In this document: positions 7,501 through 43,347 of the stretch, piece after piece
Numbering within the stretch: position 1 is the first letter of the stretch
Layout: each line of letters begins with the position of its first letter
Source: Candidatus Eiseniibacteriota bacterium
Lineage (GTDB): Bacteria > Eisenbacteria > RBG-16-71-46 > DASYSL01
Assembly: GCA_031431875.1 (NCBI GenBank)
Contig: JANPEF010000011.1
Span: forward strand, 407-64,406
Direction of reading: 5' to 3'
DNA length: 64,000 nucleotides
The notes under the pieces: generated by a model
Told to the model about the DNA's origin: nothing
What the model saw: the letters and a program-made list of their open reading frames with translations, nothing else
The model's database searches: none
Translations under genes and position numbers: made by a program

Positions 7501-8001
7501 GGAGACCTCGGCCGCGCCCAGGTTCGACACGACCGCGGTGCGCACCCAGCCGAACTCGTCGCCGGCCGACCAGCGGTAGCGGAATCCGAGCTGGAGCCCG
7601 TGGTGGATCTCCTCGAACACGATGCGGTTGCCGAGGACGTTCTTGTAGAGGTTGCGCTCGAGTTGCTGGTTCTCGCCGGCGGGCTCGGCGAAGGGCTGCC
7701 ACAGGACGCCCTCACCGGCGCCGTGTCGCACGCGCAGCAGCGTGATCGGGCCCGTATGGTGATGCGCATCGTGCAGGTGGTCGACGGTCTCGTACGGAAA
7801 GAGGCTGCCGTCGGGATCGACGCGTCCGGCCGCCAGTCCGCCGGCGGAGGAGAGGAACATCCACAGGTCGGTGTCGCTGGGGATGCTCATCAGGAACGGC
7901 GGCATCCGGTCGAAGCCGGCGATCCGGTAGTATGGCTCGCCATCGAGCGACGTGAAGGCACCGGTCGGCAGCGGCGGGGCCTCCGGGCGCTCCGTGCTCA
8001 T
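4528..8001 (-). CDS. large (1157 aa) putative (alpha/alpha)6-barrel glycoside hydrolase/phosphorylase (possibly GH94/GH149/GH161-like beta-glucan phosphorylase)
   Basis: The ORF track extends to 8649, but the upstream 216 codons overlap the GH17 gene. An ATG at 7999-8001 overlaps the GH17 stop (ATGA). Motifs NWRDIFQNWEALG, WNDANNALVGDG and GYWGDHQIVYL are suggestive of (alpha/alpha)6 glycosidase/phosphorylase folds. The family call is a guess. Confidence 0.5.
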   Translation of the reverse strand: MSTERPEAPPLPTGAFTSLDGEPYYRIAGFDRMPPFLMSIPSDTDLWMFLSSAGGLAAGRVDPDGSLFPYETVDHLHDAHHHTGPITLLRVRHGAGEGVLWQPFAEPAGENQQLERNLYKNVLGNRIVFEEIHHGLQLGFRYRWSAGDEFGWVRTAVVSNLGAAEVSVDVLDGLRNVLPHGAPLALYQQSSSLVDAYKQTDRDPETGLVLFSLTSRITDRPEAAEHLRANVAWTFGLTRPRIALSLDAIAAFRRGEPRVEPPLLTGLRGNVLAHASFTLAPRTQRRWHLVADVGLGHVELGALRARLASGEDLDRIIEESLDRAMENLRRIVASADGLQLTAHAVSTAHHQANVLFNTMRGGVFDHGHDVPAADFATYLHARNRPLAARHEERLRALPATITIRELAAWSAASGDADLERASLEYLPLYFGRRHGDPSRPWNRFRIEVRDETGSRALRYEGNWRDIFQNWEALGLSFPGFLPGMIARFVNASTTDGFNPYRITRDGIDWEVIDPHHPWSGLGYWGDHQIVYLSRLLEAQERFAPGTLAALLDRAIFSYADVPYRLEPYAAIVADPRATITFATDVAARVDARVAALGSDGKLVTDGDGAVLRVNLLEKLLVPVLSKLSNLVPDGGIWMNTQRPEWNDANNALVGDGLSMVTVYQLRRHLGVLDDLLAQRADLSCPVSGAVEVWFRAIGGILIAHRGLLAVPTLDDRDRRLVMDALGRAFETYRTRVDRHGLGAPTLLHSGDVLALCSLAREWIDHAIRANRRPDGLYHAYNLLALSAVGDTGDGAALHRLDVMLEGQVAALGSGLVDPAEAVTLLETMFAGPLYRADQKSLLLYPERALPTFLERNVIPEACVRSVPLLAAFVAAGERSIVARDAQGACRFHADFTNAREVAAALDRLAAQEPWRDAVARDRAAVLDAFEAVFHHHSFTGRSGTMYGYEGLGCIYWHMVAKLLLAVQELVGRANDAGAAPDVRAALREAYERIRGGLGYARTPAEYGAFPTDPYSHTPRHAGAQQPGMTGQVKEEILTRFGELGVRVEGGLVRFAPTMLPAGEYLAEASTFSCIDVAGAANAIAVPAGSLAFTFCQVPVVYEQGEGNGTIRVTMRGGAAEPRPGDRLTIEESQALLGRSGEIVRIDVRVTAPDPQRR

Positions 8002-9155
8002 GGCCGCGGCGCTCCGCCCAGCGCCGGTTTCGGCGTCCGGTCGGCGCGGTACAGGCCCCAGTGCTTCTCGACCTCGGCGGGATCGCCGCCGCCCTTCCAG
8101 TTCTCGTCGAAGGCCTCGAACACGAACGTCGGGATGCGCTCGCGCTCGACCCACGCGTTGAGCTCGTCGAAGAAGACCTTCTGCTCCGCCTCGCCGAGCC
8201 GGCCCTTCATCAACTTGCCCTGGTCGCCCAGGTCGTTCCGTTGCGTGGCCCAGCCAACCTCGCCGAGGATCACGGGCCGTTCCGGCTGCGCCGTGCGGAT
8301 CGAGGCGAGGGTCCGCTCCGTCCACCCCACCGCGTCCTCGAGCTGGATCCCGTTCCACAGCGGGTGCATGTGGGTCGTCACGAAATCCACCTCGCGCGCC
8401 ACGTCGCCGCTCTCGGGCTTGTTCCAGAAGTTGAAGTCGTCGGCCGTCGTCACGGGCAGGCTGGTGCGCGCGCGGACCTGGCGCAGGGCGGCGATCAGCG
8501 TGGCCGGCGGGCTGCGATGCCCGGACCAGGACACCTGTGTCTCGTTGCCGACGCAGACGGCGAGGACGATCGCCGGGTACTGCCGGGCCAGGCGCACCGC
8601 GGCGTCGATCTCGCGCTGGTTCGCCATCGAGTCCACGGGATCGATCCACAGGCCCAGCATCACCTTCATCGGGCGGCGCTCCGCATCGATGATCACCATC
8701 AGGCTCTCGGCAGGGCCCTGCGCCTGGTACACGCGGAGCAGACTCCAGTGCTTCGCCATCAGGTCGAGATCCTCGCGCAGATCGCGGCGCGATGGAGAGG
8801 CGCCGCCCGGGCGCTGCCCGTCGCGGTGGGGACCGTAGGCGACCGCGTTGCCGATCCAGCGTTCGCCGTCGAAGGGGCGGAATGGACGCACCACGAACGG
8901 CTCCTCGCGGGCGAAGGCCGTCGCGCCCGCAGCCACGGAGGCGGGCACGACTGCGGGCACGGCTGTAGGCACGGAGGCGGAGGTGGCCGGCTTCGGTGCG
9001 CCGGCGCAGCCAGCGACGACGCCGAGCACGAGGACCGCACCGAGTGCCGCTCTCAGGTCGCGCGCGGGGCGCACGAGAAATGCGCCCCGGGAAACCCGGG
9101 GCGCATCCTCGATCTTCGTGGCGCAGGATGCCCTGCGGCAGGCGGCCATGCTCAC
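7998..9155 (-). CDS. glycoside hydrolase family 17-like beta-1,3-glucanase/transglycosylase, secreted
   Basis: Signal/lipoprotein-like N-terminus. AVCVGNE (acid/base GNE) and ILGEVGWAT (GH17 nucleophile motif [LIV]-x-E-x-G-W). HWGLYRADRTPK at the C-terminus as in GH17 enzymes. Confidence 0.65.
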   Translation of the reverse strand: MSMAACRRASCATKIEDAPRVSRGAFLVRPARDLRAALGAVLVLGVVAGCAGAPKPATSASVPTAVPAVVPASVAAGATAFAREEPFVVRPFRPFDGERWIGNAVAYGPHRDGQRPGGASPSRRDLREDLDLMAKHWSLLRVYQAQGPAESLMVIIDAERRPMKVMLGLWIDPVDSMANQREIDAAVRLARQYPAIVLAVCVGNETQVSWSGHRSPPATLIAALRQVRARTSLPVTTADDFNFWNKPESGDVAREVDFVTTHMHPLWNGIQLEDAVGWTERTLASIRTAQPERPVILGEVGWATQRNDLGDQGKLMKGRLGEAEQKVFFDELNAWVERERIPTFVFEAFDENWKGGGDPAEVEKHWGLYRADRTPKPALGGAPRP

Positions 9156-9156
9156 C

Positions 9157-10569
9157 TCACGGCAGGAGCAGCATGGGGCGCGACTGCCGGCCGGCGGGCG
9201 TCGTCACGACGTACTGGTAGATGCCCGTCGCCGCCGCAACTCCGCTCGACATGCGGCCGTTCCACGACACCACGTGCGTACCGGCTTCGAGTGATCCCTG
9301 GTACAGGTTCGCGATCCGTCGCCCGGCCAGGTCATGGACCGTGACGTCCACCTTGCCCGCGCTGGCCAGCGTGAAGCTGATCCGCGTCGTGCCCGAGAAC
9401 GGGTTCGGCACGTTCTGCGCGAGCTCGATGGCGTGCGCCGGAGCCGACGCCACGTCGACCGTCCCGAGGTTGCGGAAGCCGACGTCGTCGATCCACATCG
9501 CGCCGCCCTGCAGCGTGGGCGAGAAGAAGAGGATGTAGGCGGACGCCGTCACGGTGCCGGCCGGGGCGACCGCCGTGACCGTGTGCCGGGTCCACGTCCC
9601 CAGGGGCGCGGTGTTGTCGAGGATCACCGTTTCTCCGGTGCCGATCTCCACGTTCGCGGCGTCCTTGTAGACGATGCGGGCGAGAACGTAATTGTCGTTC
9701 GTTCCGGTGATGGGGTCGTTGTAGCGGCACGACGTGAGCGCGTTCACGTCGAGCTCCCAGAGCTGGTTCTCGGACCCCGCGGTCGTCTGGAACAGGCCCG
9801 ACGGTGCGGCGGGAGCGAAGGTCGAGAACAGCTTGGCGCTGCCCGTCGGGGTGCGCAGCACCGGCACCTGCGCCTCGGGGAAGACGTTGCCGAACGTGGT
9901 CCAACCGGTGAGGCCGGTGCCAAAGCTCGGATTGGCGAGCACGTTGGGCTGCACGACCGTCGCGGATTCGTCGAACGAGGTGTCGTCGACGAAGACCGCG
10001 CCGCCATCGCAGGCCGGCTGCAGGTAGAGGAACAGCGCTTCGACGCGGACCGCGCCGGCGGGGGCGAGGGCCGATACGGAGAACGCGTTCCACTGCCCGG
10101 TGATCGCGTTGCCGTCCCCGATCACGACCTCGTTCGACGAGAGCTCGTTGCCACCGACGGCCGCGTCGAAGAACGCGATCTTCGCGAGCATCCGGTTCTT
10201 CGAGCAGGTGGTCGTGCCCGGGATGGGGTCGGCGGCGGCGATGTATGAGTAACCGCTGAGGGTGTACGTCTTTCCGGCCGTGGGGGTGAACCCCTGTCCG
10301 AAGCCCCCGACATTGAACTGGCCTCCCGGGCAGTTGATGAATCCGCCGAACGTCTTCGACGCTGCGCCACCCGTGCGGATGATGTTGTCGCCGCCCGGGA
10401 GCGAGAGCTGGACGCCGGCTCCGAACGTGAACCAGCCGTTATAGGAGCCCGCGCCGGTCTCGAAACCGGGGTTGGCCAGCAGATTCGCAGCGGTTGCCGA
10501 GGATGCACCTGTGGCGGACGCGAAGACGATCGTCCCCAGGAGCGAGAGACTTGCCAGAAACTGCTTCAT
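9157..10569 (-). CDS. secreted protein with two CBM4/9-like (LANPGFETG / LANPSFGTG) modules and a C-terminal FlgD-Ig-like domain
   Basis: Start re-assigned to the ATG at 10567-10569 (MKQFLASLSLLGTIVFASATGA signal peptide). A GGAGGA RBS lies directly upstream. The tail is VPNPFSGTTRISFTL...VHDLAGRRI...WNGRMSSGVAAATGIYQY. Confidence 0.7.
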   Translation of the reverse strand: MKQFLASLSLLGTIVFASATGASSATAANLLANPGFETGAGSYNGWFTFGAGVQLSLPGGDNIIRTGGAASKTFGGFINCPGGQFNVGGFGQGFTPTAGKTYTLSGYSYIAAADPIPGTTTCSKNRMLAKIAFFDAAVGGNELSSNEVVIGDGNAITGQWNAFSVSALAPAGAVRVEALFLYLQPACDGGAVFVDDTSFDESATVVQPNVLANPSFGTGLTGWTTFGNVFPEAQVPVLRTPTGSAKLFSTFAPAAPSGLFQTTAGSENQLWELDVNALTSCRYNDPITGTNDNYVLARIVYKDAANVEIGTGETVILDNTAPLGTWTRHTVTAVAPAGTVTASAYILFFSPTLQGGAMWIDDVGFRNLGTVDVASAPAHAIELAQNVPNPFSGTTRISFTLASAGKVDVTVHDLAGRRIANLYQGSLEAGTHVVSWNGRMSSGVAAATGIYQYVVTTPAGRQSRPMLLLP

Positions 10570-34803: not shown

Positions 34804-37800
34804 ATGATGGATCGCGGCACCGCGCTCGGGCCGTACGTCGTCGTCGACCGCCTGGGCTCCGGCGGGATGGGCGATGTCTACCGCGCGCACGACGCACGCC
34901 TCAACCGTGACGTGGCGCTCAAGCTGCTGCCCCGCGAGTTCGCGCGCGACCCGGACCGGCTCGTCCGCTTCCGCCAGGAAGCGCTGCACCTCGCCGCGCT
35001 CAACCATCCGAACATCGCCACCATCCACGGCTTCGAGGAAGGCGAGGGCGAGACCAAGTTCCTCGTCCTCGAGCTGGTCGAGGGGCGCTCGCTCGCCGAT
35101 CGCATCGCCGACGGTCCGCTGCCGCCCGAGGAGGCGCTCGCCATCGCGGCGCAGATCGCCGAGGCGCTCGAGGCCGCGCACGAGCGCGACGTCATTCACC
35201 GCGATCTCAAGCCGGCAAACGTCATGCTGGGCCCGCGCGGGCGGGTCAAGGTGCTCGACTTCGGGCTTGCCATGGGACGCCGCGCGGGTGGTGCCGCCAA
35301 GCAGGTGGAGCAGGCCGGTGGTCACGTCGATCTCGATGCGCTCACGCAATCGCCCGACGGCGCGACGATGGCGCCGCTCGCCCCCGTCACCATGGTCGGC
35401 GGCACGAGTGCTGGCAGCTCGGACTCGGCCGAGGGCACGCCGGGTTACATGTCGCCCGAGCAGATCGTCGCCGGCGCGCAGGACGCGCGCACCGATGTGT
35501 TCGCGTTCGGGGCGCTGCTCTACGAGGCGCTCACCGGCGTGCCCGCGTTCCCCGGCGCAAACGTGGGCGAGATGCTGCGCGCCACGCTGGAGAAGGAGCC
35601 GGCGTGGGAACGCCTGCCCGAGAAGCTGTCGCCGCGCATTCGAACCCTGCTCACCGGCACGCTCGAGAAGAACATGGCGCGGCGGCCCGACTCGATCCAC
35701 GCCCTGCGGGTCGAGATCGAGGACGTGCTCGGCATCCGCCGCGCGGCCGCGCTCCGTGCGGGCGAAGCCGCCGCGATCGCCAACAACCTGCCGCAGTTGC
35801 TCACCAGCTTCGTCGGCCGCGACGCCGAGCTCGTCGCGTGCGGGGTGCTGCTGGCGAAGACGCGCATTCTCACGCTCACGGGCTTCGGCGGCAGCGGCAA
35901 GACCCGGCTCGCGCTCGAGCTCGCTTCGCGTGCGCTGGCCGAGTACCCGGACGGCGTGTGGTTTGTCGACCTGGCACCGCTGCGGGATGCGTCGCGCCTC
36001 GAGGCCACGGTCGCCGCCGCGATCGACGTGCGCGAGGAGCCGGGGCGCTCGCTCACCGAGGCGCTGCTCGAGCGCCTGCGTGGGCGGCGCGCGCTGGTGC
36101 TGCTCGACAACTGCGAGCACCTGCTCGCGCCCGCGGCCGCGCTGGTCGGCATCCTGCTGCGCGCCTGCGCCGAGCTGACCGTGCTCGCCACCAGTCGCGA
36201 GGCGCTTGGCGTCGACGGCGAGACCGTCCACCCCGTGCCCACGCTCGGCTTGCCCGGCGCGGAGCTCACCGGCGGGGCGGCCGCGTTCGAGGGCTTCGAA
36301 GCGGTGCGGCTCTACGTCGAGCGGGCGCGGCAGGTGGTGCCCGACTTCGCGCTCACCGACGTGAACGCGGCGATCGTCGGCGAGATCTGCCGCCGCCTCG
36401 ACGGGATTCCGCTCGCGCTCGAGCTGGCGGCGGCGCGCGCCCGCGTGCTCGGCGTCGAGCAGATCCTGGCCAAGCTCGACGATCGCTTCCGCCTGCTCAC
36501 CGGCGGGAGCAAGAGCGCGCTGCCGCGCCAGCAGACGCTGCGGGCCACCATCGAGTGGAGCTACGAGATGCTCGCCCCGCACGAGCAGGCGTTCTTCCGC
36601 CGGCTCGCCGTGTTCGCCGGCGGCTGGTCGCTGGAGGGAGCGGTCGCCGTGGTCGAGGCGGACGCGGACGAGTTCGACGTCCTCGACCTGCTGACCCTGC
36701 TGGCGGACAAGTCGCTGGCCGTCGTCGACCGCACCGTGCCCGACCGGCCGCGCTATCGCTTTCTCGAGTCGGTGCGCCAGTTCGCGCTCGAGCGCCTGCG
36801 CGAGACCGACGAGGAGCCGGCGCTGCGCGATCGCCATCTCGCGCACTTCCTCGGGCTGGCCGAGCAGGCCGAGACCGAACTCACCGGTCCGCGCCAGGGC
36901 CAGTGGTTCGCCCGGCTCGATGCCGACGGCGAGAACCTGCTCGCCGCGCTCACCGCCTCGCGCTCGCTGCCGGGCGGTCCGGATCGCGGCGTGCGGCTGG
37001 CCGGCGCGGTGGCGCGCTTCTGGTCGGCGCGCGGGCGCTATGTCGTCGGCCTGCGCGCGCTGACCAGCGCGCTCGAGGTGCAGGCCGCGGCGAAGGCGAA
37101 GGCGGGCGACACCACGCCCGACCCCGCGCGCGGCAAGGCGCTGGTGCGCGCCGGCGGGCTCGCGCTGTACCTGTGCGACCTCGAGACGGCGGCGCCGCCG
37201 ATCGACGAGAGCCTCGCCATCTACCAGGCGCTCGGGGACAAGAAGGGGGTGGCGCGCGCTTTCGCAGCGCGGGCCACGCTGGCGGCATTCCGCGGTGAAC
37301 TCGGCGAGTCGAGGCAGTTCGGGCTGTCGAGCCTCGAGATCTACCGCGAGATCGGCGAGGCGCGGGGGATCGCCGTCACGCTGCACAACCTGGGCTATCT
37401 CGCGCTCCTCCAGGGGAACTGGAACGAGGCCGAGCCGCTCTATGCGGAATCACTGCACCTGATGCGAGGGGTGGGGGACCGGGAGCACATGGCCCTGACT
37501 CTGGCCGACCTGGCGATCACCTCGCGCGGGCTGGACCAGGAGGACAAGGCCCGCGGGGAGCTGGCCGAGGCCTTCGACCTGGTCCAGGAGGTGGCGGCCA
37601 AGCGCGAGGGGGCCTATGCGCTCGAGGCCGCCTCCGCGCTCGCCGAGAGCGGCGACGACTTCTCCCGGGCGGCGCGCTATGCGGGTGCGGCCAAAGCACT
37701 TCGCGAGGCGATCGGCTCGCCACTGGTGCCCATCGAGCAGCGCGATCGCGACGTCCGAGCGGCCCGGGTGATGGCGGCCCTGGGTGGTCCAGCCTTCGCC

Positions 37801-37890
37801 GAGGCCACCGAGGGGGGGCGGGCCCTGGCATTCGAGGCCGCGGTGACCGAGGCACGGGACTGGCTGGCCGCGGCTCCTGCCGGGGCCTGA
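34804..37890 (+). CDS. Ser/Thr protein kinase fused to an NB-ARC/AAA (STAND) ATPase and TPR repeats
   Basis: Kinase subdomains GSGGMGDVYRA, VALK, HRDLKPAN, DFGLA and GTPGYMSPE. Then Walker A LTGFGGSGKTRLA, Walker B ALVLLDNCEH, and a C-terminal TPR-like region (ARAFAARATLAAF, VTLHNLGYLALLQGNW). Confidence 0.85.
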   Translation: MMDRGTALGPYVVVDRLGSGGMGDVYRAHDARLNRDVALKLLPREFARDPDRLVRFRQEALHLAALNHPNIATIHGFEEGEGETKFLVLELVEGRSLADRIADGPLPPEEALAIAAQIAEALEAAHERDVIHRDLKPANVMLGPRGRVKVLDFGLAMGRRAGGAAKQVEQAGGHVDLDALTQSPDGATMAPLAPVTMVGGTSAGSSDSAEGTPGYMSPEQIVAGAQDARTDVFAFGALLYEALTGVPAFPGANVGEMLRATLEKEPAWERLPEKLSPRIRTLLTGTLEKNMARRPDSIHALRVEIEDVLGIRRAAALRAGEAAAIANNLPQLLTSFVGRDAELVACGVLLAKTRILTLTGFGGSGKTRLALELASRALAEYPDGVWFVDLAPLRDASRLEATVAAAIDVREEPGRSLTEALLERLRGRRALVLLDNCEHLLAPAAALVGILLRACAELTVLATSREALGVDGETVHPVPTLGLPGAELTGGAAAFEGFEAVRLYVERARQVVPDFALTDVNAAIVGEICRRLDGIPLALELAAARARVLGVEQILAKLDDRFRLLTGGSKSALPRQQTLRATIEWSYEMLAPHEQAFFRRLAVFAGGWSLEGAVAVVEADADEFDVLDLLTLLADKSLAVVDRTVPDRPRYRFLESVRQFALERLRETDEEPALRDRHLAHFLGLAEQAETELTGPRQGQWFARLDADGENLLAALTASRSLPGGPDRGVRLAGAVARFWSARGRYVVGLRALTSALEVQAAAKAKAGDTTPDPARGKALVRAGGLALYLCDLETAAPPIDESLAIYQALGDKKGVARAFAARATLAAFRGELGESRQFGLSSLEIYREIGEARGIAVTLHNLGYLALLQGNWNEAEPLYAESLHLMRGVGDREHMALTLADLAITSRGLDQEDKARGELAEAFDLVQEVAAKREGAYALEAASALAESGDDFSRAARYAGAAKALREAIGSPLVPIEQRDRDVRAARVMAALGGPAFAEATEGGRALAFEAAVTEARDWLAAAPAGA

Positions 37891-38138
37891 TCACGCAAGC
37901 CCAAGCGGGCACGCAGTTTTCGGTTGCGTGACGCGCCACGATCTGTCACGATTCTCCCGGCTCCTCCTCCCGGGGTTCCCGTCACTCGGATGTGACGTTT
38001 TCACGTCCTGTGGTGGTGGACTCCGTTGGTCCCGGCTCCTTCCCCCGTCGGGCCGATGGTTCTCAATGGGTCCCTTTCCTTTCAGCCGCGTCGCGTGTGC
38101 GTCGGGTCAACCGTCGCCGCCGGCCATCGAGGTGCTTC

Positions 38139-38825
38139 ATGAAGAAAACGGCGATCGCGTTCCTCCTCGGAATGTTCGCCCTGAACGCTGGGCTCGCTCC
38201 GGCGGCCGGCGCCACGGATATTCTCTTCGACTATGTCGGGTTCGACTACGAGTCGCCGAATCCCGATCCGGGTCAGTTCGGAGAGCTGGGCGCTGGCTAC
38301 GTGAGCCTCGGGGAGGTGCCGGTTCTCTATGCGCCCCTCGTGTTCAACGTTTTGGTGAACGAGTATACCTACGTGATTTCGGGCCTGACCGCGGTGAATC
38401 GCCAGTCGGTCGGCCCCTTCATCATCGTCGACTACGCGGGCGGCGCCCTCGATCTGTACGAGGATTCGCGCACGCTCGGCACGCTCGCGGACTACGGGAT
38501 CAACCCGCCCAACGCGACCGCACCGCCGACGTTCAACGACGGCACGCACATGCTGGCCGGCACGCTCTCGAGCTTCCGCTTCGTGTTCAACACGGTCGAC
38601 AACTCGGGCAGCTTCGAGGCCAACTATCAGGCCACCGGCGGCGCGCAGCTGGCGAACATCCCGCTGAACAAGCGCTCGGGCTGGACCTTCTCCGGCGCCA
38701 CCTCGAACGCGCTCAACATTCCGCAGGGCTACGCGCACCAGATCGACGGCCAGGTTCTCGTGGAGGAAGTTGTCCCCGTGAATGATGCGTCGTGGGGTCG
38801 TCTGAAGGCCAACTATCGCAAGTAG
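38139..38825 (+). CDS. secreted hypothetical protein, paralog A (228 aa)
   Basis: ATG at 38139 (MKKTAIAFLLGMFALNAGLAPAAGA signal peptide). Shares DYGINPPNATAPPTFNDGT and a C-terminal WGRLKANYRK with the next gene. Confidence 0.6.
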   Translation: MKKTAIAFLLGMFALNAGLAPAAGATDILFDYVGFDYESPNPDPGQFGELGAGYVSLGEVPVLYAPLVFNVLVNEYTYVISGLTAVNRQSVGPFIIVDYAGGALDLYEDSRTLGTLADYGINPPNATAPPTFNDGTHMLAGTLSSFRFVFNTVDNSGSFEANYQATGGAQLANIPLNKRSGWTFSGATSNALNIPQGYAHQIDGQVLVEEVVPVNDASWGRLKANYRK

Positions 38826-38867
38826 TCGTTGCTTTCGGAGCGATCCGAAGCTCATGGGGGTGCACCG

Positions 38868-39566
38868 ATGAATCACTGGAAAACGCGCATCATCACCGGG
38901 CTGGCTGCTCTCGCTTTTGCCGCGACGGCCCATGCCGGCCCCTCGATCGACTGGGATCCGATCTTCCTCTACGGTCCTCCCAGCTCGACGTTCAACAATC
39001 AGCCTCTCGGCAACGCGCTCAGCGGGGTCGGGACGGTCAGCAAGTTCGACGCGCCGTTCGGCTTCCTCGATGCGAGCGACCCGACAAAGGAATACACGAT
39101 CTACCTGTACGGGCTGACGTCGCAGGGCACGAGCACCATTGGCGCCCCGGGGCTGCAGTTCTACACGACGAACTATTCGGGCGGCACGATCGAGGTCTAC
39201 GAAGACCTCTCGCCCGATCACAACTACGGCATCAACCCGCCCAACGGCACGGCCCCGTCGACGTTCATCGACGGCACCCTGCTCCTCAAGGGCAACTTCA
39301 CGCGCTTCATCGTCCAGACGAACGACTTCACGCAGTTCCAGGTCGGAAATGCGGAAGGCGACATCAGCTGGACGAGCGGCTCGCTCTACAACCTCACGTT
39401 CGCGGGTGGCCAGCCCTGTCCGGGCCTGTTCACCGGTGGCCTGACGTGGCGGACGAGCGTGCTCATTCCGGGTTACCTCTTCCGGCATGATGGCAAGATC
39501 GACCTCAACTGCCCGGTGCCCGCCGAGAGCTCGACGTGGGGCAAGGTGAAGGCGCAGTACCGGTAA
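38868..39566 (+). CDS. secreted hypothetical protein, paralog B (232 aa)
   Basis: ATG at 38868 (MNHWKTRIITGLAALAFAATAHA signal peptide). NYGINPPNGTAPSTFIDGT, C-terminal WGKVKAQYR. Tandem duplicate of 38139..38825. Confidence 0.6.
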   Translation: MNHWKTRIITGLAALAFAATAHAGPSIDWDPIFLYGPPSSTFNNQPLGNALSGVGTVSKFDAPFGFLDASDPTKEYTIYLYGLTSQGTSTIGAPGLQFYTTNYSGGTIEVYEDLSPDHNYGINPPNGTAPSTFIDGTLLLKGNFTRFIVQTNDFTQFQVGNAEGDISWTSGSLYNLTFAGGQPCPGLFTGGLTWRTSVLIPGYLFRHDGKIDLNCPVPAESSTWGKVKAQYR

Positions 39567-39690: not shown

Positions 39691-40953
39691 ATGAACGTTC
39701 CCCATGTCGTCATCCTCGGCGGCGGCTTCGGCGGTCTCTACGCCGCCCGCGCCCTCGCGGGCGCGCCCGTGCGCGTCACGCTGGTCGATCGGCGGAACCA
39801 CCACGTCTTCCAGCCCTTGCTCTACCAGGTCGCCACCGCCGGCTTGTCCGCGCCCGACGTCGCCGCGCCGATCCGCTCCATCCTCCGGCACCAGCGCAAC
39901 GCGACCGTCCTGCTGGCCGAGGGGCGCTCGATCGATCCGACCGCCCGCACCGCAACCATCGAGGCGCCTGAAGCGCGGCCGCTGTCGTATGACTTCCTGA
40001 TCGTCGCCACGGGCTCGACGCACTCGTACTTCGGCCACGACGAGTGGGCGCGGTTCGCGCCCGGGCTCAAGGACATCGAGGACGCGTTCGAGGTGCGCAG
40101 CCGTATCCTGCTCGCGTTCGAGCGCGCCGAGTCCGCGCGCGACGAGGCCGAGCGGCGGCGCGCGCTCACCTTCGTCATCGTCGGCGGGGGCCCGACCGGC
40201 GTCGAACTGGCCGGCGCGATCGGCGAGATCGCACGGCACACGATGGCGCGCGACTTTCGCAACTTCGACCCGGCCAGTGCGCGGATCCTGCTCGTCGACG
40301 GCTCGGACCGCGTGCTGCCCGCGTACCCCGCGGTGAGCTCGCGCGACGCGGCGCGCCTGCTCGCCGATCGCGGCGTGGAACTCGTGCTCGGCGCGCGTGC
40401 GACCAGCGTCGACGCGGTCGGAGTGACGCTCGACGGATCGCGCCGCATCGAGGCGGGGACGGTGCTGTGGGCTGCGGGAGTGGCGTCGTCGCCGCTGGCG
40501 CGCGACCTCGGCGCGCCGCTCGATCGCACGGGGCGCGTGCTGGTGGCGGCGGACCTGTCGGTGCCGGGACACCCGGAGATCTTCGTCGTGGGGGACCTGG
40601 CGGCGGTGCCGGCCGGCGAGGGGTTCCTGCCGGGCGTGGCGCAGCCGGCGATCCAGGGCGGGAGGCAAGCCGCGGCGAACATCGTGCGGCGCGTGCGCGG
40701 CGAGCCGACGGGGTCGTTCCGCTACAAGGACCTGGGCACGATGGCGACGATCGGGCGGCGGGCCGCGGTGGCGCAGGTGGGCGGCCGGACGTTCTCGGGC
40801 TACCCGGCGTGGCTCCTGTGGGTCTTCATCCACATCGTGTGGCTGATCGGCTTCCGCAACCGGGTGATCGTGATGTTCGAGTGGGCGTGGGCCTACTGGA
40901 CGTGGGGTCGCGGCGCGCGGGTCATCCTCGATCGGAAGGCGTGGCCATCGTGA
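39691..40953 (+). CDS. ndh: type II NADH:quinone oxidoreductase (NDH-2)
   Basis: VVILGGGFGGLYAARAL dinucleotide-binding motif, a second GxGxxG (FVIVGGGPTGVELAGA), GDLAAVP, and a C-terminal membrane-anchoring amphipathic segment. Confidence 0.85.
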   Translation: MNVPHVVILGGGFGGLYAARALAGAPVRVTLVDRRNHHVFQPLLYQVATAGLSAPDVAAPIRSILRHQRNATVLLAEGRSIDPTARTATIEAPEARPLSYDFLIVATGSTHSYFGHDEWARFAPGLKDIEDAFEVRSRILLAFERAESARDEAERRRALTFVIVGGGPTGVELAGAIGEIARHTMARDFRNFDPASARILLVDGSDRVLPAYPAVSSRDAARLLADRGVELVLGARATSVDAVGVTLDGSRRIEAGTVLWAAGVASSPLARDLGAPLDRTGRVLVAADLSVPGHPEIFVVGDLAAVPAGEGFLPGVAQPAIQGGRQAAANIVRRVRGEPTGSFRYKDLGTMATIGRRAAVAQVGGRTFSGYPAWLLWVFIHIVWLIGFRNRVIVMFEWAWAYWTWGRGARVILDRKAWPS

Positions 40954-41128
40954 TAAAATGTTGCGTGACAATACGTTATGGATGACACTCTTGAAGTGTT
41001 AGCCCGTGGCTCGCGGATGGCTAAATTTAGTAAACCTACCAACATCGGCTCATTTGTCTCTGGTGTCTCATCGTGTCGTGAGTTAGATTTACTCCAATGG
41101 CTAAAAATAGCCTTGGAGGTGAATCGAC

Positions 41129-42349
41129 ATGAACTTACGACAGGAGTTCTCCAACCCGTTCCGCCCGGGAGCGGGACACATGCCGCCCTACCTCGCCGGC
41201 CGCGAGGCTGAGAAGCTCGAGTTTTTGAGGCTCCTCGAGCAGAAGGTGATTCTCGAGAATCTCGTCCTCACCGGTCTGCGTGGGGTTGGCAAGACGGTCC
41301 TTCTGGAGACCTTCAAGCCACTCGCACTGCAGAAGGGCTGGCAGTGGGTCGGAACTGATCTCTCGGAGTCCGCGAGTCTCGATGAGGAAAGCATTGCTCT
41401 CCGTCTTCTGACTGATCTCTCCTTGGCGACTTCGTCGTTCCGCATCCGCGGGGAGGCGCGACCAAAGATCGGACTTGGCGCAGTCAAAGAGCCGTTCGAG
41501 CGGGCGATGGACTACCCATTGCTGCACTCGATCTACTCCGCAACTCCAGGACTGGTCTCGGACAAGCTCAAGAGCGTGTTGGAGTTCGTCTGGACCCAAA
41601 TCCAGGGTGCCGGGAGTCGGGGCATCGTCTTCGCCTATGACGAGGCGCAGAATCTGTCCGATCATGCCGCCAGGGGTGAGTATCCGATGTCGTTGCTCCT
41701 GGACGTCTTCCAGTCGATCCAGCGCAAGGGTGTGCCATTCATGCTTGCCTTGACGGGACTTCCGACGCTGTTTCCCAAGCTTGTTGAAGCGCGAACGTTC
41801 TCAGAGCGCATGTTCAACGTAGTGAATCTCGACAAGCTCGATCAGGAAGACACCGAGAAGGCGATTCGAGAACCGATGGCGAATCATCCAATCAAGCTCT
41901 CCGACGATGCCGTCAGCGCTATCGCCGAGCTCAGCGCTGGCTACCCGTACTTCATTCAGTTTGTATGTCGCGAATGCTATGACATCTGGATTGCGAGCGC
42001 CGCTTCGGGTCAGCCGCTTCCCGAGATCCCGGTGAGGGCGTTGCTCCGCAAGCTCGACTCGAACTTCTTCGCGGGCCGATGGGCCAAGGCGACGGATCGT
42101 CAGCGCGACCTGCTGGGAGTAATTGCATCGCTGAAGTCTGCAGCGGGGGAGTTTACCGTTCAGGAGATCGTGGAGACGTCGAAGTCCGGACCGGGAAAGG
42201 CGTTTACCGCGAGTCATGTCAGCCAAATGCTCGCAACGCTTGGAGATGCTGGGCTCGTCTACAAGAACAGGTGGGGAAAGTACTCGTTCGCCGTTCCACT
42301 GTTCGACAAGTTCATTCGACGCCAGATTGAGCCCTCGTCAGAGAACTGA
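41129..42349 (+). CDS. orphan AAA+/STAND-like ATPase (AAA_16/arch-ATPase-like N-terminus, probable C-terminal winged helix) on a low-GC island
   Basis: NPFRPGAGHMPPYLAGREAEKLEFLRLL followed by Walker A LTGLRGVGKTVLL and Walker B IVFAYDEAQNL. Local GC is clearly lower (~50-57%) than the ~70% flanks. An AT-rich promoter region lies at 40954-41128, with a GGAGGTG RBS. Confidence 0.7.
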   Translation: MNLRQEFSNPFRPGAGHMPPYLAGREAEKLEFLRLLEQKVILENLVLTGLRGVGKTVLLETFKPLALQKGWQWVGTDLSESASLDEESIALRLLTDLSLATSSFRIRGEARPKIGLGAVKEPFERAMDYPLLHSIYSATPGLVSDKLKSVLEFVWTQIQGAGSRGIVFAYDEAQNLSDHAARGEYPMSLLLDVFQSIQRKGVPFMLALTGLPTLFPKLVEARTFSERMFNVVNLDKLDQEDTEKAIREPMANHPIKLSDDAVSAIAELSAGYPYFIQFVCRECYDIWIASAASGQPLPEIPVRALLRKLDSNFFAGRWAKATDRQRDLLGVIASLKSAAGEFTVQEIVETSKSGPGKAFTASHVSQMLATLGDAGLVYKNRWGKYSFAVPLFDKFIRRQIEPSSEN

Positions 42350-43347
42350 CCTGGCCCCGGGTCCAGCGGGTGAGATGCCCACTTCCGCGGCAGCATTTGC
42401 CGGCGCCCGCCGCCGCGCCTCGTTCGCCGCGATCAACTCGGCGAGCACGGCCTTCTGCAGGTGCAGGCGGTTCTCGGCCTGGGCGAGGATCACGCTCTGC
42501 GGGCCGTCCATCACGGCGTCGGTCACTTCTTCCCCGCGGTGCGCCGGCAGGCAGTGCATGAACAGGGCATCGGGCGCAGCCAGCGCCATCAGCGCCTCGT
42601 TCACCTGGTAGCCCGCAAACGACACGCGCCGCCACGCGGCCTCGTCCTCCTGGCCCATGCTCGTCCACGTGTCGGTATAGACGACGTCGGCGCCGCGCGC
42701 GGCCTCCTTGGGATCGCGCACGCGGCGGATGCCGCCCCTGGCGCGCGACTCCGCGGCGAGGAACAGGCCGCCGTCGGGCTCGAAGCCGTCGGGCGTGGCG
42801 AACGTCAGCGCGAAGCCGAAGATCGTCGCCGCCTCGATCCACGAGTGGAGCACGTTGTTGCCGTCGCCCACCCACGCCACCTTGAGCGTGTCGAGGTCGC
42901 GTCCCGCGCGCCACAGCGTGTAGAGATCGGCCAGGATCTGGCACGGGTGCGAGTGGTCGGTCAGCGCGTTGATCACCGGCACCGTCGAATGCGTGGCCAG
43001 GTCGGTGACGAGCTTGTGGGTGAACGTGCGAATGACGATCGCGTCGCACATCCCGGAGATCACGTGCGCCACGTCGGGAACGCTCTCGCGGCCGTGCGCC
43101 GAGACCTCGGCCATGCCCAGGTCGATCGCATCGCCGCCCAGCTCGTGCATGCCGACGGTGAAGGACACGCGCGTGCGCAGCGACGGCTTGTGGAACACGA
43201 GTGCGGCCGTGCGTCCGGCCAGCGGCCTGGGCGCATGCCGCGTTCGGCGGTGAGCCCGCAACAGCTCGGCCTGCTGGAACAGCGTCAGCACGAATGCGCG
43301 GTCCAGGCCGATGAGGTCGATCAGGTGCGCCGGAACGACGTGGTTCA
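42338..43347 (-). CDS. argF: ornithine carbamoyltransferase
   Basis: Carbamoyl-P site SLRTRVSF, HPCQ, ornithine-binding DTWTSMGQE, and HCLPAHRGEEV. GTG start at 43345-43347. The track ORF extends further upstream into the GNAT gene. Confidence 0.85.

Follow-up and report, generated by a model that had tools for sequence, protein, structure and literature searches.

The window, that is, the whole 64-kb stretch of DNA analysed here, carries a gene for a 406-aa AAA+ ATPase with a winged helix (41129-42349, forward strand; ATG at 41129, TGA at 42349), and the neighbours of this gene are a kinase gene, two paralogues, ndh, argF, a GNAT gene, argG and argD. The stop codon of ndh lies at 40951-40953 and AT-rich DNA begins with the very next base, forming an upstream control region of about 175 bp (40954-41128, forward strand). 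At its other end the ATPase gene meets the convergent argF, an OTCase gene by Pfam, in a 12-nt overlap of the two 3' ends (42338-42349; argF stop codon at 42338-42340), where the argF tail reaches into the cassette. GC was 0.44 over the intergenic 40954-41128, 0.585 over the gene and 0.702 as the mean of the window, and when all 1,396-bp intervals were compared (mean 0.702, sd 0.026) the lowest value, 0.567, belonged to the interval starting at 40951, about 5 sd under the mean. No tRNA was found across the 64-kb window, no integrase among the neighbours of the ATPase gene, and no terminal inverted or direct repeats or target-site duplications flanking the cassette; that is, none of the marks of a site-specific integration island (integrase, tRNA target, flanking direct repeats) was seen at the window locus. 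The earlier note had reported the AT-rich leader, the overlap with the argF stop region and the lack of an integrase and a tRNA, all of which were borne out, and in the sliding-window GC analysis that it proposed, no other 1.4 kb in the whole 64 kb was as low in GC as 40954-42349. Its fall from about 70% to 45-57% GC held as a drop, but the range was slightly low for the coding part (0.51-0.635 in 200-bp intervals). In an alignment with the relative L033, the segment specific to the window spanned about 40947-42407.

The protein was predicted to consist of a nucleotide-binding domain (residues ~40-235), a helical lid (239-319) and a C-terminal winged helix (323-400; 42095-42328, forward strand), which fully cover the 406 aa and include no recognisable effector or sensor domain. 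The strings NPFRPG...AGREAEKLEFL, GLRGVGKTV and VFAYDEAQ, quoted beforehand for the ATPase part of the protein, were all present in the 406-aa ORF, and the earlier call of an AAA+/STAND-like ATPase ending in a winged helix agreed with an AAA_16 match above cutoff, the AF2 model and its fold matches. Pfam AAA_16 (PF13191) matched residues 22-199 of the window protein at 34.4 bits (gathering cutoff 32.6) and matched 40 of 40 family members (E <= 0.01), as a very broad P-loop family whose membership carries no functional meaning; ATPase_2 (PF01637) scored below gathering in the window protein (12.6 bits, cutoff 33.2) and gave no more than sub-cutoff matches in 24 of 40 relatives. The AF2 model (pLDDT 86, pTM 0.79) had fold matches to ATPase_2 proteins and Orc1/Cdc6, and weaker ones to NLR/Avs cores. 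On the forward strand, Walker A GLRGVGKT (G49-T56; 41273-41296) is essentially invariant family-wide and Walker B FAYDE (F168-E172; 41630-41644) is invariant; the invariant residues comprise K55, D171/E172, R222/R227 (candidate arginine finger) and R281 (candidate sensor-2), the finger and sensor-2 roles being assigned by position only. The ATPase is predicted to be catalytically intact, and its dN/dS of 0.05 against the relative L004 shows strong purifying selection. Inside the nucleotide-binding domain, the entropy profile and pLDDT blocks delimit a hypervariable insert (residues 105-137; 41441-41539, forward strand), modelled as a beta-hairpin at lower confidence. The winged helix, whose wing VYKNRWGKYSFAVP is nearly invariant, weakly matched ArsR-type HTH and MCM_C wHTH. 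For the window protein, NCBIfam curated names gave only far-sub-threshold matches, a PDB sequence search (profile search included) returned nothing useful and did not recover Orc/Cdc6 chains, and the exact protein was present in NCBI and Logan without a name.

One reading of such a protein is a lone Avs/STAND-type anti-phage sensor, which would recognise a phage protein, oligomerise, and kill or arrest the cell. Pointing this way, a GxP-like GYP motif is located in the lid, nSTAND6 and nSTAND1 gave weak Pfam matches in a few family members, residues 105-137 could be a recognition surface, and family members occupy moron positions in prophages and, at one locus, adjoin Pycsar-like, E2 and relaxase genes. 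We nevertheless regard this sensor as rather unlikely. Defence STANDs are tripartite, with an effector, an NTPase and C-terminal sensor repeats (PMC13581612). The 406 aa of the window protein hold neither an N-terminal effector nor a C-terminal repeat sensor, no PADLOC model fitted (best PDC-S01, E = 0.044, P-loop only), and the invariant candidate arginine-finger and sensor-2 arginines, which are kept here, suit a classical AAA+/Orc protein better. Nor does the family sit in defence islands: when 142 neighbours from 26 loci were run in bulk against PADLOC and Pfam, a raw tally gave mostly metabolic or housekeeping genes, with isolated defence-type genes only (Pycsar, E2, MTase, DRT-like) and no apparent enrichment of defence genes. 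High conservation across phyla is atypical of sensors that track fast-evolving phage proteins, and the 55-65% identity across phyla is unusually high for a phage-protein receptor.

The control region of the window copy (44% GC) is syntenic with L004 and partly conserved there. It contains box 1, which matches the family palindrome CTAAATTTAG exactly (41021-41030, 108 nt 5' of the start codon) and has no further match at <=1 mismatch in the other 63.7 kb of the window, and box 2, a degenerate CTAAAAATAG with two mismatches (41101-41110, 28 nt 5' of the start codon). Box 2 is a direct-repeat partner of box 1 (ATGGCTAAAnnTAG, 80 bp apart) and is identical in L004; a second relative, L035, has CTAAATATAG at the same position. 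Around box 2 lies a 27-nt imperfect palindrome CTCCAATGGCTAAAAATAGCCTTGGAG (41092-41118, forward strand), which as RNA is predicted to form a hairpin pairing part of the Shine-Dalgarno sequence GGAGGTG (41115-41121, forward strand; 7 nt before the ATG, read from the sequence). The RNA of 41080-41140, which contains it, was predicted at -21.6 kcal/mol (z = -5.2), and the hairpin is found in L004 too (z = -3.2) and absent from L035. Only a sub-threshold Rfam match was obtained in the hairpin region and no Rfam family was assigned at the cassette, and a consensus scan of the window cassette found neither a sigma-70 promoter nor an intrinsic terminator. The window operator is degenerate, with one exact and one two-mismatch box 80 bp apart and a non-canonical half-site spacing, and appears partly decayed.

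In most family members, CTAAATTTAG boxes recur in the upstream DNA at a spacing of exactly 18 bp, an arrangement that can alternatively be read as abutting TTTAG-N8-CTAAA units. Of 41 non-redundant upstream regions, 32 had boxes, 46 in total, where shuffles gave 0.4 +/- 0.6; 21 of 35 successive box pairs were spaced at exactly 18 bp, and, at <=1 mismatch, 34 boxes lay in 7.2 kb of upstream DNA against 1 in 467 kb elsewhere. Among 86 non-redundant upstream regions, the 50 with two boxes spaced at 18 bp gave the symmetric consensus TTAG-N8-CTAAATTTAG-N8-CTAAATTTAG-N8-CTAA, equal to three abutting 18-bp TTTAG-N8-CTAAA units, and the canonical array is 58 bp long and two-fold symmetric. It overlaps the promoter and 5' UTR in most family members; at one locus (L022) the boxes overlap TTGACA-N16-TATACT, and each box includes a -10-like TAAATT hexamer. 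In the reverse test, an exact double box was present on 120 metagenome contigs; 48 of them had a family gene start <=120 nt downstream, as had about 85% of those with >=50% GC. The boxes were absent from distant homologues (~30% identity), among which no common upstream palindrome was found and start sites were ambiguous. A full-text literature search found no description of the family or its operator, and the putative conserved upstream operator is a new finding.

Several other matches were set aside. A looser double 9-mer gave 101 matches in IMG/VR, most of them from viral genomes rich in AT (median GC 0.35), and these were taken as chance; tandem 18-bp arrays in AT-rich metagenome contigs appear unrelated and are possibly eukaryotic repeats; and 25 double-box matches were a coding coincidence inside a sigma-factor gene. 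The exact double box had one match in IMG/VR, which did not adjoin a family gene.

Their co-occurrence suggests that the ATPase binds the boxes. The boxes might instead be bound by another factor, or be a portable promoter- or terminator-like module that merely travels with the gene, which we judge to be unlikely. About 10-13 well-formed arrays stand without the gene, on prokaryote-like contigs (seven named cases) and on phage contigs (four), which implies that the boxes may serve beyond autoregulation or that another factor may bind them; the -10-like hexamer in each box and the missing boxes of the distant homologues fit this too. However, no single host factor is common to eight phyla and their phages, the sole constant companion of the array is the ATPase, whose winged helix is of a DNA-binding type with the wing and recognition helix nearly invariant, the symmetric TTTAG-N8-CTAAA has the geometry of a dimeric wHTH operator, and the solo arrays may be what is left of lost cassettes, or sites acting in trans.

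The family, for which >7,650 matches were obtained, comprises >7,600 proteins of ~405 aa with about 55-66% identity across at least eight phyla, and its hosts include Eisenbacteria, Chloroflexota, Actinomycetota, Thermodesulfobacteriota, Planctomycetota, Spirochaetota and Proteobacteria. It forms one 50%-identity cluster with relatives at 30-50%, has lineage-specific clusters in Solirubrobacterales, Chloroflexota and Thermodesulfobacteriota, and is entered in PHROGs as phrog_6841, 'unknown function'. All-against-all BLAST of the neighbours in 30 loci found no conserved partner gene. The unrelated A. baumannii phages L045 and L042 share only positions 7909-9238 at 85% identity, an interval that opens 92 nt before the start codon and closes 20 nt after the stop codon, a Spirochaetales and a Phycisphaerales locus have 1,319 nt in common at 88% between unrelated flanks, and Solirubrobacterales pairs likewise have a common unit and unrelated flanks. 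Three independent locus pairs show that the transferred unit is ~1.3 kb, made up of the upstream region and the gene. The cassette thus moves as one piece among temperate phages and the chromosomes of different phyla, and in the phages it sits as a moron.

Phage morons are autonomous transcription units located between phage gene modules. The phage copies of the cassette are surrounded by terminase, portal and head genes, and in A. baumannii phages the gene lies between the antiterminator-Q region and the packaging genes, on a backbone 97% identical to that of sequenced Acinetobacter phages without the gene; presence or absence on a conserved backbone, between modules, was found for L042, L045 and L053. 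The cassette resembles a moron in being one lone gene that has a control region of its own and terminators on its flanks, but unlike morons it is also chromosomal in many phyla, far from prophages and between housekeeping genes. Complete MAG chromosomes that carry the gene include OZ240206.1, OZ240207.1 and OY762443.1. The window copy is chromosomal and outside any prophage.

In the lineage of the window, the same gene occupies the same ndh-argF site in L004 and L035. For the window against L035, the ATPase had a dN of 0.15 and ndh one of 0.17, with saturation at synonymous sites; the insertion is old and vertically inherited here. The comparison of the ndh-argF junction recommended in the earlier note also revealed close relatives that have the same synteny and lack the ATPase, with a lipoprotein-like or beta-helix gene between ndh and argF instead, which supports the view that ndh-argF is a variable slot and the ATPase gene an accessory insert. 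At this site in the window, L004 and L035, GC3 of the ATPase was 0.65-0.73 versus 0.93 in host genes, and across the family 34 of 37 loci, 39%-GC hosts included, had an ATPase gene richer in AT than its flanks. GC2 of the family gene is ~0.40 in every host and part of the GC drop is therefore protein-imposed, and GC3 follows host GC3 with a slope of 0.93. Because the insertion is common to three lineages and synonymous sites are saturated, the low GC is a family trait rather than a sign of recent arrival. The initial inference of horizontal acquisition from composition was thus right in that the family is mobile, with units common to unrelated backbones, and wrong in taking low GC as the mark of a recent arrival. 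The same gene at the same place with native composition had been named as a finding that would speak against it: the place is indeed the same in L004 and L035, but their composition is also non-native.

We consider it very unlikely that this is just a host gene, passed on vertically and coding for an ordinary regulator or housekeeping ATPase, and that its low GC comes from amino-acid composition. Its age at the site, its dN/dS, a divergence that parallels ndh, the behaviour of GC2 and GC3 and the lineage-specific clusters would all suit a host gene. Against this, its distribution is patchy, with a different location in nearly every lineage, it is missing from close relatives with the same synteny and found in phages, the 1.3-kb unit recurs at 85-88% on unrelated backbones and across phyla, and GC3 stays 0.2 under host genes despite synonymous saturation.

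Among known systems, the window protein has the same three-domain fold as archaeal ATPase_2 proteins (PF01637; PDB 2qen PABY2304, 2fna SSO1545), with an identity of only 15-17%; in contrast to them, members of the cassette family come from bacteria and phages, are extremely conserved and are tied to an operator array, and we know of no operator-array-like cis element for archaeal ATPase_2 proteins. With Orc1/Cdc6 (PDB 2qby, 2v1u, 1w5s) it shares the AAA+ domain, the lid, the C-terminal winged helix, Walker A/B and the candidate finger and sensor-2 residues, at 10-16% identity and with no sequence-level family match. Of the housekeeping Cdc6/Orc-like factor that the earlier note had named as speaking against its view, the structure applies, as the fold is Orc1/Cdc6-like, and the role does not, as the gene is not housekeeping.

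This likeness raises the idea of a replication initiator with its cognate origin, in which the boxes would be ORB- or iteron-like repeats by an AT-rich unwinding region, a relic of an integrated replicon or still serving one. Full-length fold matches include Orc1/Cdc6 bound to origin DNA, the fixed-phase repeats adjoin an initiator-like gene in AT-rich DNA as in archaeal origins, and plasmids of actinobacteria and sphingomonads carry distant homologues, one of which, at the start of Clavibacter pCI3, directly follows parA-like genes; a further homologue is on a 5.9-kb 'bacteriophage' record. Yet no other replicon part moves with the 1.3-kb unit, the gene-carrying A. baumannii phages already own replication genes, the gene is stable between chromosomal housekeeping genes, and Pfam, NCBIfam and PDB profile searches gave no sequence membership in Orc/Cdc6 families. 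The repeats overlap the gene's own promoter and Shine-Dalgarno sequence, which is the geometry of an operator, and the hosts are bacteria and phages, unlike those of archaeal Orc1/Cdc6. To our knowledge no MCM-type helicase exists in bacteria that an Orc1-like protein could load, which also counts against an origin, and we hold this idea to be highly improbable. A functional analogy exists with autorepressing wHTH regulators and iteron Reps, which likewise have phased repeats over their own promoter and dimer half-sites (TTTAG-N8-CTAAA here); here, in contrast, a complete AAA+ motor is joined to the DNA-binding domain, and there is no sequence or fold relationship to Rep proteins.

We propose that the cassette is an autonomous control region plus one gene (~1.3-1.4 kb) for an autoregulated, ATP-switched DNA-binding protein that takes part in conflicts of phages or mobile elements with their hosts; we place as much trust as doubt in this reading. 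With the nucleotide-binding domain, lid and C-terminal winged helix of archaeal ATPase_2 and Orc1/Cdc6, winged-helix dimers of the ATPase would sit on the TTTAG-N8-CTAAA units, their occupancy would be set by ATP-controlled oligomerisation (three dimers, approximately a hexamer), and the ATPase would repress its own transcription, which would keep its level low and switchable. The pay-off, the most tentative step, may lie in phage or mobile-element conflict rather than in housekeeping, for example if incoming DNA were excluded by sequence- or structure-specific DNA binding. Of the observations collected, those favouring a conflict role are the moron position in phages and the one Pycsar-like-adjacent locus only. 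A defence role is a plausible candidate function, though a weaker one than the earlier note suggested: housekeeping genes make up most of the neighbours, and genes of defence systems or mobile elements are few.

Further, the cassette might be a hitherto unrecognised kind of minimal selfish or immune element, in which an Orc1/Cdc6-like hexamer of three dimers, assembled on its own 58-bp array in an ATP-driven and sequence-specific way, would block the replication or packaging of incoming DNA or promote its own maintenance and spread. This is quite unlikely in our estimate; it would explain the recombinase-free spread of 1.3 kb, the solo arrays and the lasting AT offset, and in its exclusion variant it could be a one-protein system without an enzymatic effector.

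If the proposed autoregulated cassette is real, thousands of bacterial genomes and temperate phages, including Acinetobacter baumannii prophages, would hold the same 'hypothetical ATP-binding protein', which would be a self-regulating Orc1/Cdc6-like DNA-binding motor carrying its own operator along, a bacterial and phage counterpart of the archaeal initiator-like ATPase with adjacent recognition repeats. The 406-aa protein and its 58-bp site would then be a tractable model for the reading of phased repeats by an AAA+/winged-helix protein, and the cassette is a candidate for a new single-gene function in phage-host conflict. It also offers a caution for island detection, as the sharp GC trough of the window reflects a long-kept, family-intrinsic composition and not a recent arrival.

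The low-GC interval that the earlier note placed at 40954-42349, between ndh and argF, is real and is the strongest of the window: the deepest GC minimum among all 1,396-bp windows starts at 40951 (GC 0.567, about 5 sd under the mean). An upstream stretch (40954-41128, GC 0.44) precedes the ATPase gene (41129-42349, 406 aa, GC 0.585), while the window averages 0.702. The open reading frame and its quoted motifs were confirmed, as were the overlap of its 3' end with that of convergent argF (12 nt) and the absence of tRNA genes from the window. No terminator lies between the two genes, and searches for terminal repeats, target duplications and Rfam families found none.

The 406-aa protein barely reached Pfam AAA_16 (34.4 bits, cutoff 32.6), its matches to AAA_22, ATPase_2 and nSTAND6 were all sub-threshold, and NCBIfam, a PDB sequence search and PADLOC gave no meaningful match. 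The AlphaFold2 model, made with 40 homologues, was confident (pLDDT 86, pTM 0.79), with a P-loop domain at about residues 40-235, a helical lid at 239-319 and a C-terminal winged helix at 323-400. Walker A, Walker B, the lid arginine R281, and R222 and R227, located where an arginine finger would be expected, are invariant across the family; the same is true, or nearly so, of the winged-helix wing and of NPFRPGAGHMPPYLAGR, an N-terminal motif, and variation is concentrated in a single insert (residues 105-137). Therefore, the initial call of an AAA+/STAND-like ATPase with a winged helix was correct. The protein is structurally of a known kind, the Orc1/Cdc6, ATPase_2 and STAND-core ATPase group, and its retained arginines fit classical AAA+/Orc proteins better than STAND.

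The palindrome CTAAATTTAG, here called the box, was found upstream of family members from all phyla. At one mismatch or fewer it occurred 34 times in 7.2 kb of upstream DNA versus once in the remaining 467 kb of locus DNA, and 41 non-redundant upstream regions held 46 copies, spread over 32 of them (0.4 +/- 0.6 copies in composition-matched shuffles). Of 35 pairs of successive copies, 21 had a spacing of exactly 18 bp. A box pair so spaced was present in 50 of 86 non-redundant upstream regions, and alignment of their arrays gave the consensus TTAG-N8-CTAAATTTAG-N8-CTAAATTTAG-N8-CTAA, that is, three abutting 18-bp TTTAG-N8-CTAAA units in a two-fold symmetric whole, and the geometry of the unit is that of dimeric winged-helix operators. 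The arrays of contigs L022 and L216 form perfect inverted repeats of 22 and 31 bp, TTGACA-N16-TATACT is overlapped by the L022 array, and the final half-site directly adjoins the Shine-Dalgarno sequence in many lineages. The phased, symmetric and conserved array is tightly linked to the ATPase gene, and this upstream cis element of the family is new; our literature search found no description of the ATPase family or its operator. An origin initiator, which would agree with the protein fold and with repeats adjoining the gene, is highly improbable, as the operator geometry of the array does not fit and no replicon of any kind is present. The window itself carries a degenerate form of the array, with an exact box at 41021-41030 and a second, CTAAAAATAG, 80 bp away at 41101-41110 within a 27-nt palindrome. 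The predicted RNA fold of 41080-41140, which includes this palindrome, pairs some of the Shine-Dalgarno sequence and has a folding energy of -21.6 kcal/mol (z -5.2); the hairpin is common to the window and L004 but not L035, two relatives' loci with the same gene at the same site.

The reverse test, from box to gene, was strong: among 120 contigs from metagenomes that have an exact box pair at array spacing, a family gene started within 120 nt downstream in 48, including about 85% of those with GC of at least 0.5. In another 25 the box pair arises by coincidence within the coding sequence of a sigma-factor gene, which is a caveat for any motif-only search; this is a conserved gene of low-GC marine bacteria (contigs L162, L167, L170 and L185, for example; ...YSKFRGEAKFSTW...). 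One flank was too short to judge in 17, and the other 29 or so were either tandem repeats of AT-rich sequence or solo arrays located in ordinary intergenic DNA, such as downstream of atpC and ahead of a purM-like gene. Well-formed solo arrays of the consensus form, with no ATPase gene nearby, were located at L163:12949-12976, L212:403-430, L233:878-905, L238:2247-2274, L243:482-509, L266:1835-1862 and L216:2224-2251; they could be what is left of lost cassettes, or sites that act in trans. Because they exist, we retain the reading that another factor binds the boxes, though we consider it quite unlikely. Phage contigs L060 (4261-4288), L121 (2460-2486), L129 (minus strand) and L132 (1788-1814) also carry the array with no family gene downstream; a third half-site, CTAATA, is part of it there, in some cases along with a terminator hairpin.

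Of 8,000 scored candidates, more than 7,650 matched the ATPase family, all of them about 400-425 aa long. This very large family forms one dominant cluster in a 50%-clustered library, plus relatives at 30-50% identity. Its named hosts are Candidatus Eisenbacteria (the host lineage of the window and its best match), Chloroflexota, Actinomycetota, Thermodesulfobacteriota, Planctomycetota, Spirochaetota and Proteobacteria. Comparison across lineages gives star-like identities of 55-65%, lineage-specific clusters reach 73-81%, and one pair from different phyla is 91% identical. This distribution contradicts a plain housekeeping regulator, which is very unlikely. Source annotations read 'ATP-binding protein' or 'hypothetical', and PHROGs lists phrog_6841 with 'unknown function'. 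No conserved neighbour gene was found across 30 family loci, and the 142 neighbours at 26 genome loci were mostly metabolic or housekeeping genes (SelA, SHMT, GatB, PGM, histidine biosynthesis), with only isolated defence or IS matches; one locus, in Steroidobacter, is flanked by Pycsar-like and E2 genes and a relaxase. An Avs/STAND sensor, the kind of anti-phage defence that the earlier note had in view, is unlikely, since its defining architecture is missing in the 406-aa protein and both defence-model matches and a neighbourhood signal are lacking. Homologues of about 29% identity are located on Rhodococcus, Arthrobacter, Clavibacter and Sphingobium plasmids. In Clavibacter pCI3 (L036, 1-2582) the homologue directly follows parA-like genes at the start of the record, with a different perfect palindrome of its own, CTGTCAAGATCTGACAG, and GACAAGG-like repeats (1340-1400) just upstream of its Shine-Dalgarno sequence.

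The family was also present on 21 IMG/VR contigs; those inspected were genuine phages that encode terminase, portal and head proteins, and the ATPase is a solitary unit in them. The low-GC examples are temperate phages of Acinetobacter baumannii, with a packaging module 97% identical to those of vB_AbaSI_1, Acba_15 and others; vB_AbaSI_1 has other small genes in the slot that follows antiterminator Q. Among 50,697 deposited phage records there was no DNA-level match to the ATPase gene, and the sole protein homologue was distant (about 28%). Two otherwise unrelated A. baumannii phages had only one segment in common (85% identity), which begins 92 nt ahead of the start codon and ends 20 nt beyond the stop. 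A Spirochaetales MAG (L016) and a Phycisphaerales MAG (L030) likewise had only 1,319 nt in common (88% DNA identity, protein 91%), a stretch that begins 105 nt ahead of the start, ends near the stop and lies between unrelated flanks; either the cassette passed between phyla recently, or one of the MAGs has a binning error. Solirubrobacterales genomes gave the same pattern, with the cassette alone common to them. The mobile unit therefore consists of the control region together with the gene, about 1.3 kb, and the 1.4-kb GC trough of the window equals it in size. Array and gene have thus moved together as one unit between phyla and into phages. Family matches in Solirubrobacterales MAGs at L031:8001-8499 (68% over scattered segments) and L032:8001-8375 (44%, confined to the winged helix) are fragmentary, which suggests decayed copies or domain-only relatives.

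We regard an autoregulated DNA-binding cassette as having about an even chance of being right as a whole. The winged helix would let the ATPase bind the array of its own gene, whose occupancy, and hence autorepression, would be set by ATP-dependent oligomerisation; the cassette may have selective value in phage or mobile-element conflict, the weakest step of the model.

Relatives of the host share the gene order kinase-STAND-TPR gene, two paralogues, ndh, slot, argF, GNAT gene, argG and argD. In the window, L004 (aa identity 95%) and L035 (80%), this slot holds the ATPase. In L033 (6484-7233) and L034 (6297-7220) its occupants are homologous lipoprotein-like genes with no Pfam match, and another contig has a 554-aa beta-helix protein there. 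The slot gene of L033 is GC-depressed (0.61 versus 0.72), and that of L034 is near native composition. At occupied loci the argF tail runs on into the 3' end of the cassette: argF is kept up to ...AANEARRRA (window 42338-42400, minus strand; also L004, L035, L033 and L034), and its tail is 7-15 aa longer where the cassette 3' end codes for it. Between the window and L035, dN was 0.149 for the ATPase and 0.168 for ndh, and synonymous sites of the ATPase were saturated (pS 0.73); dN/dS against L004 was 0.05. The slot is variable in this lineage, residence of the cassette is old, and the ATPase gene is solitary and under strong constraint. Despite saturation, its GC3 is still 0.65-0.73 versus 0.93 for host genes, and in 34 of 37 loci it lay under that of flanking ORFs (median -0.09, p = 2e-7). 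Therefore, the trough marks a lasting property of an accessory, mobile family; the low GC had been taken as a sign of horizontal acquisition, which holds for the family but not as recent arrival. Across the 37 loci GC3 follows host GC3 (slope 0.93) and GC2 is about 0.40 everywhere; part of the trough is imposed by the conserved protein sequence.

The two tandem paralogues (37992-38825 and 38829-39566, plus strand; 277 and 245 aa, 33% identical, GC lower at 0.58-0.67, no Pfam match) are kept in L033 and L034; their common ending, W-G-[RK]-[LV]-K-A-x-Y-R, might be a C-terminus resembling a sorting signal. The gene at 34804-37890 (plus strand) adjoins in all relatives of the lineage. Its product, 1,028 aa long, combines Ser/Thr kinase, AAA_22 (STAND-like) and TPR domains, so that two STAND-like proteins, unrelated by sequence, are encoded within a few kb of each other, this one and the 406-aa ATPase.
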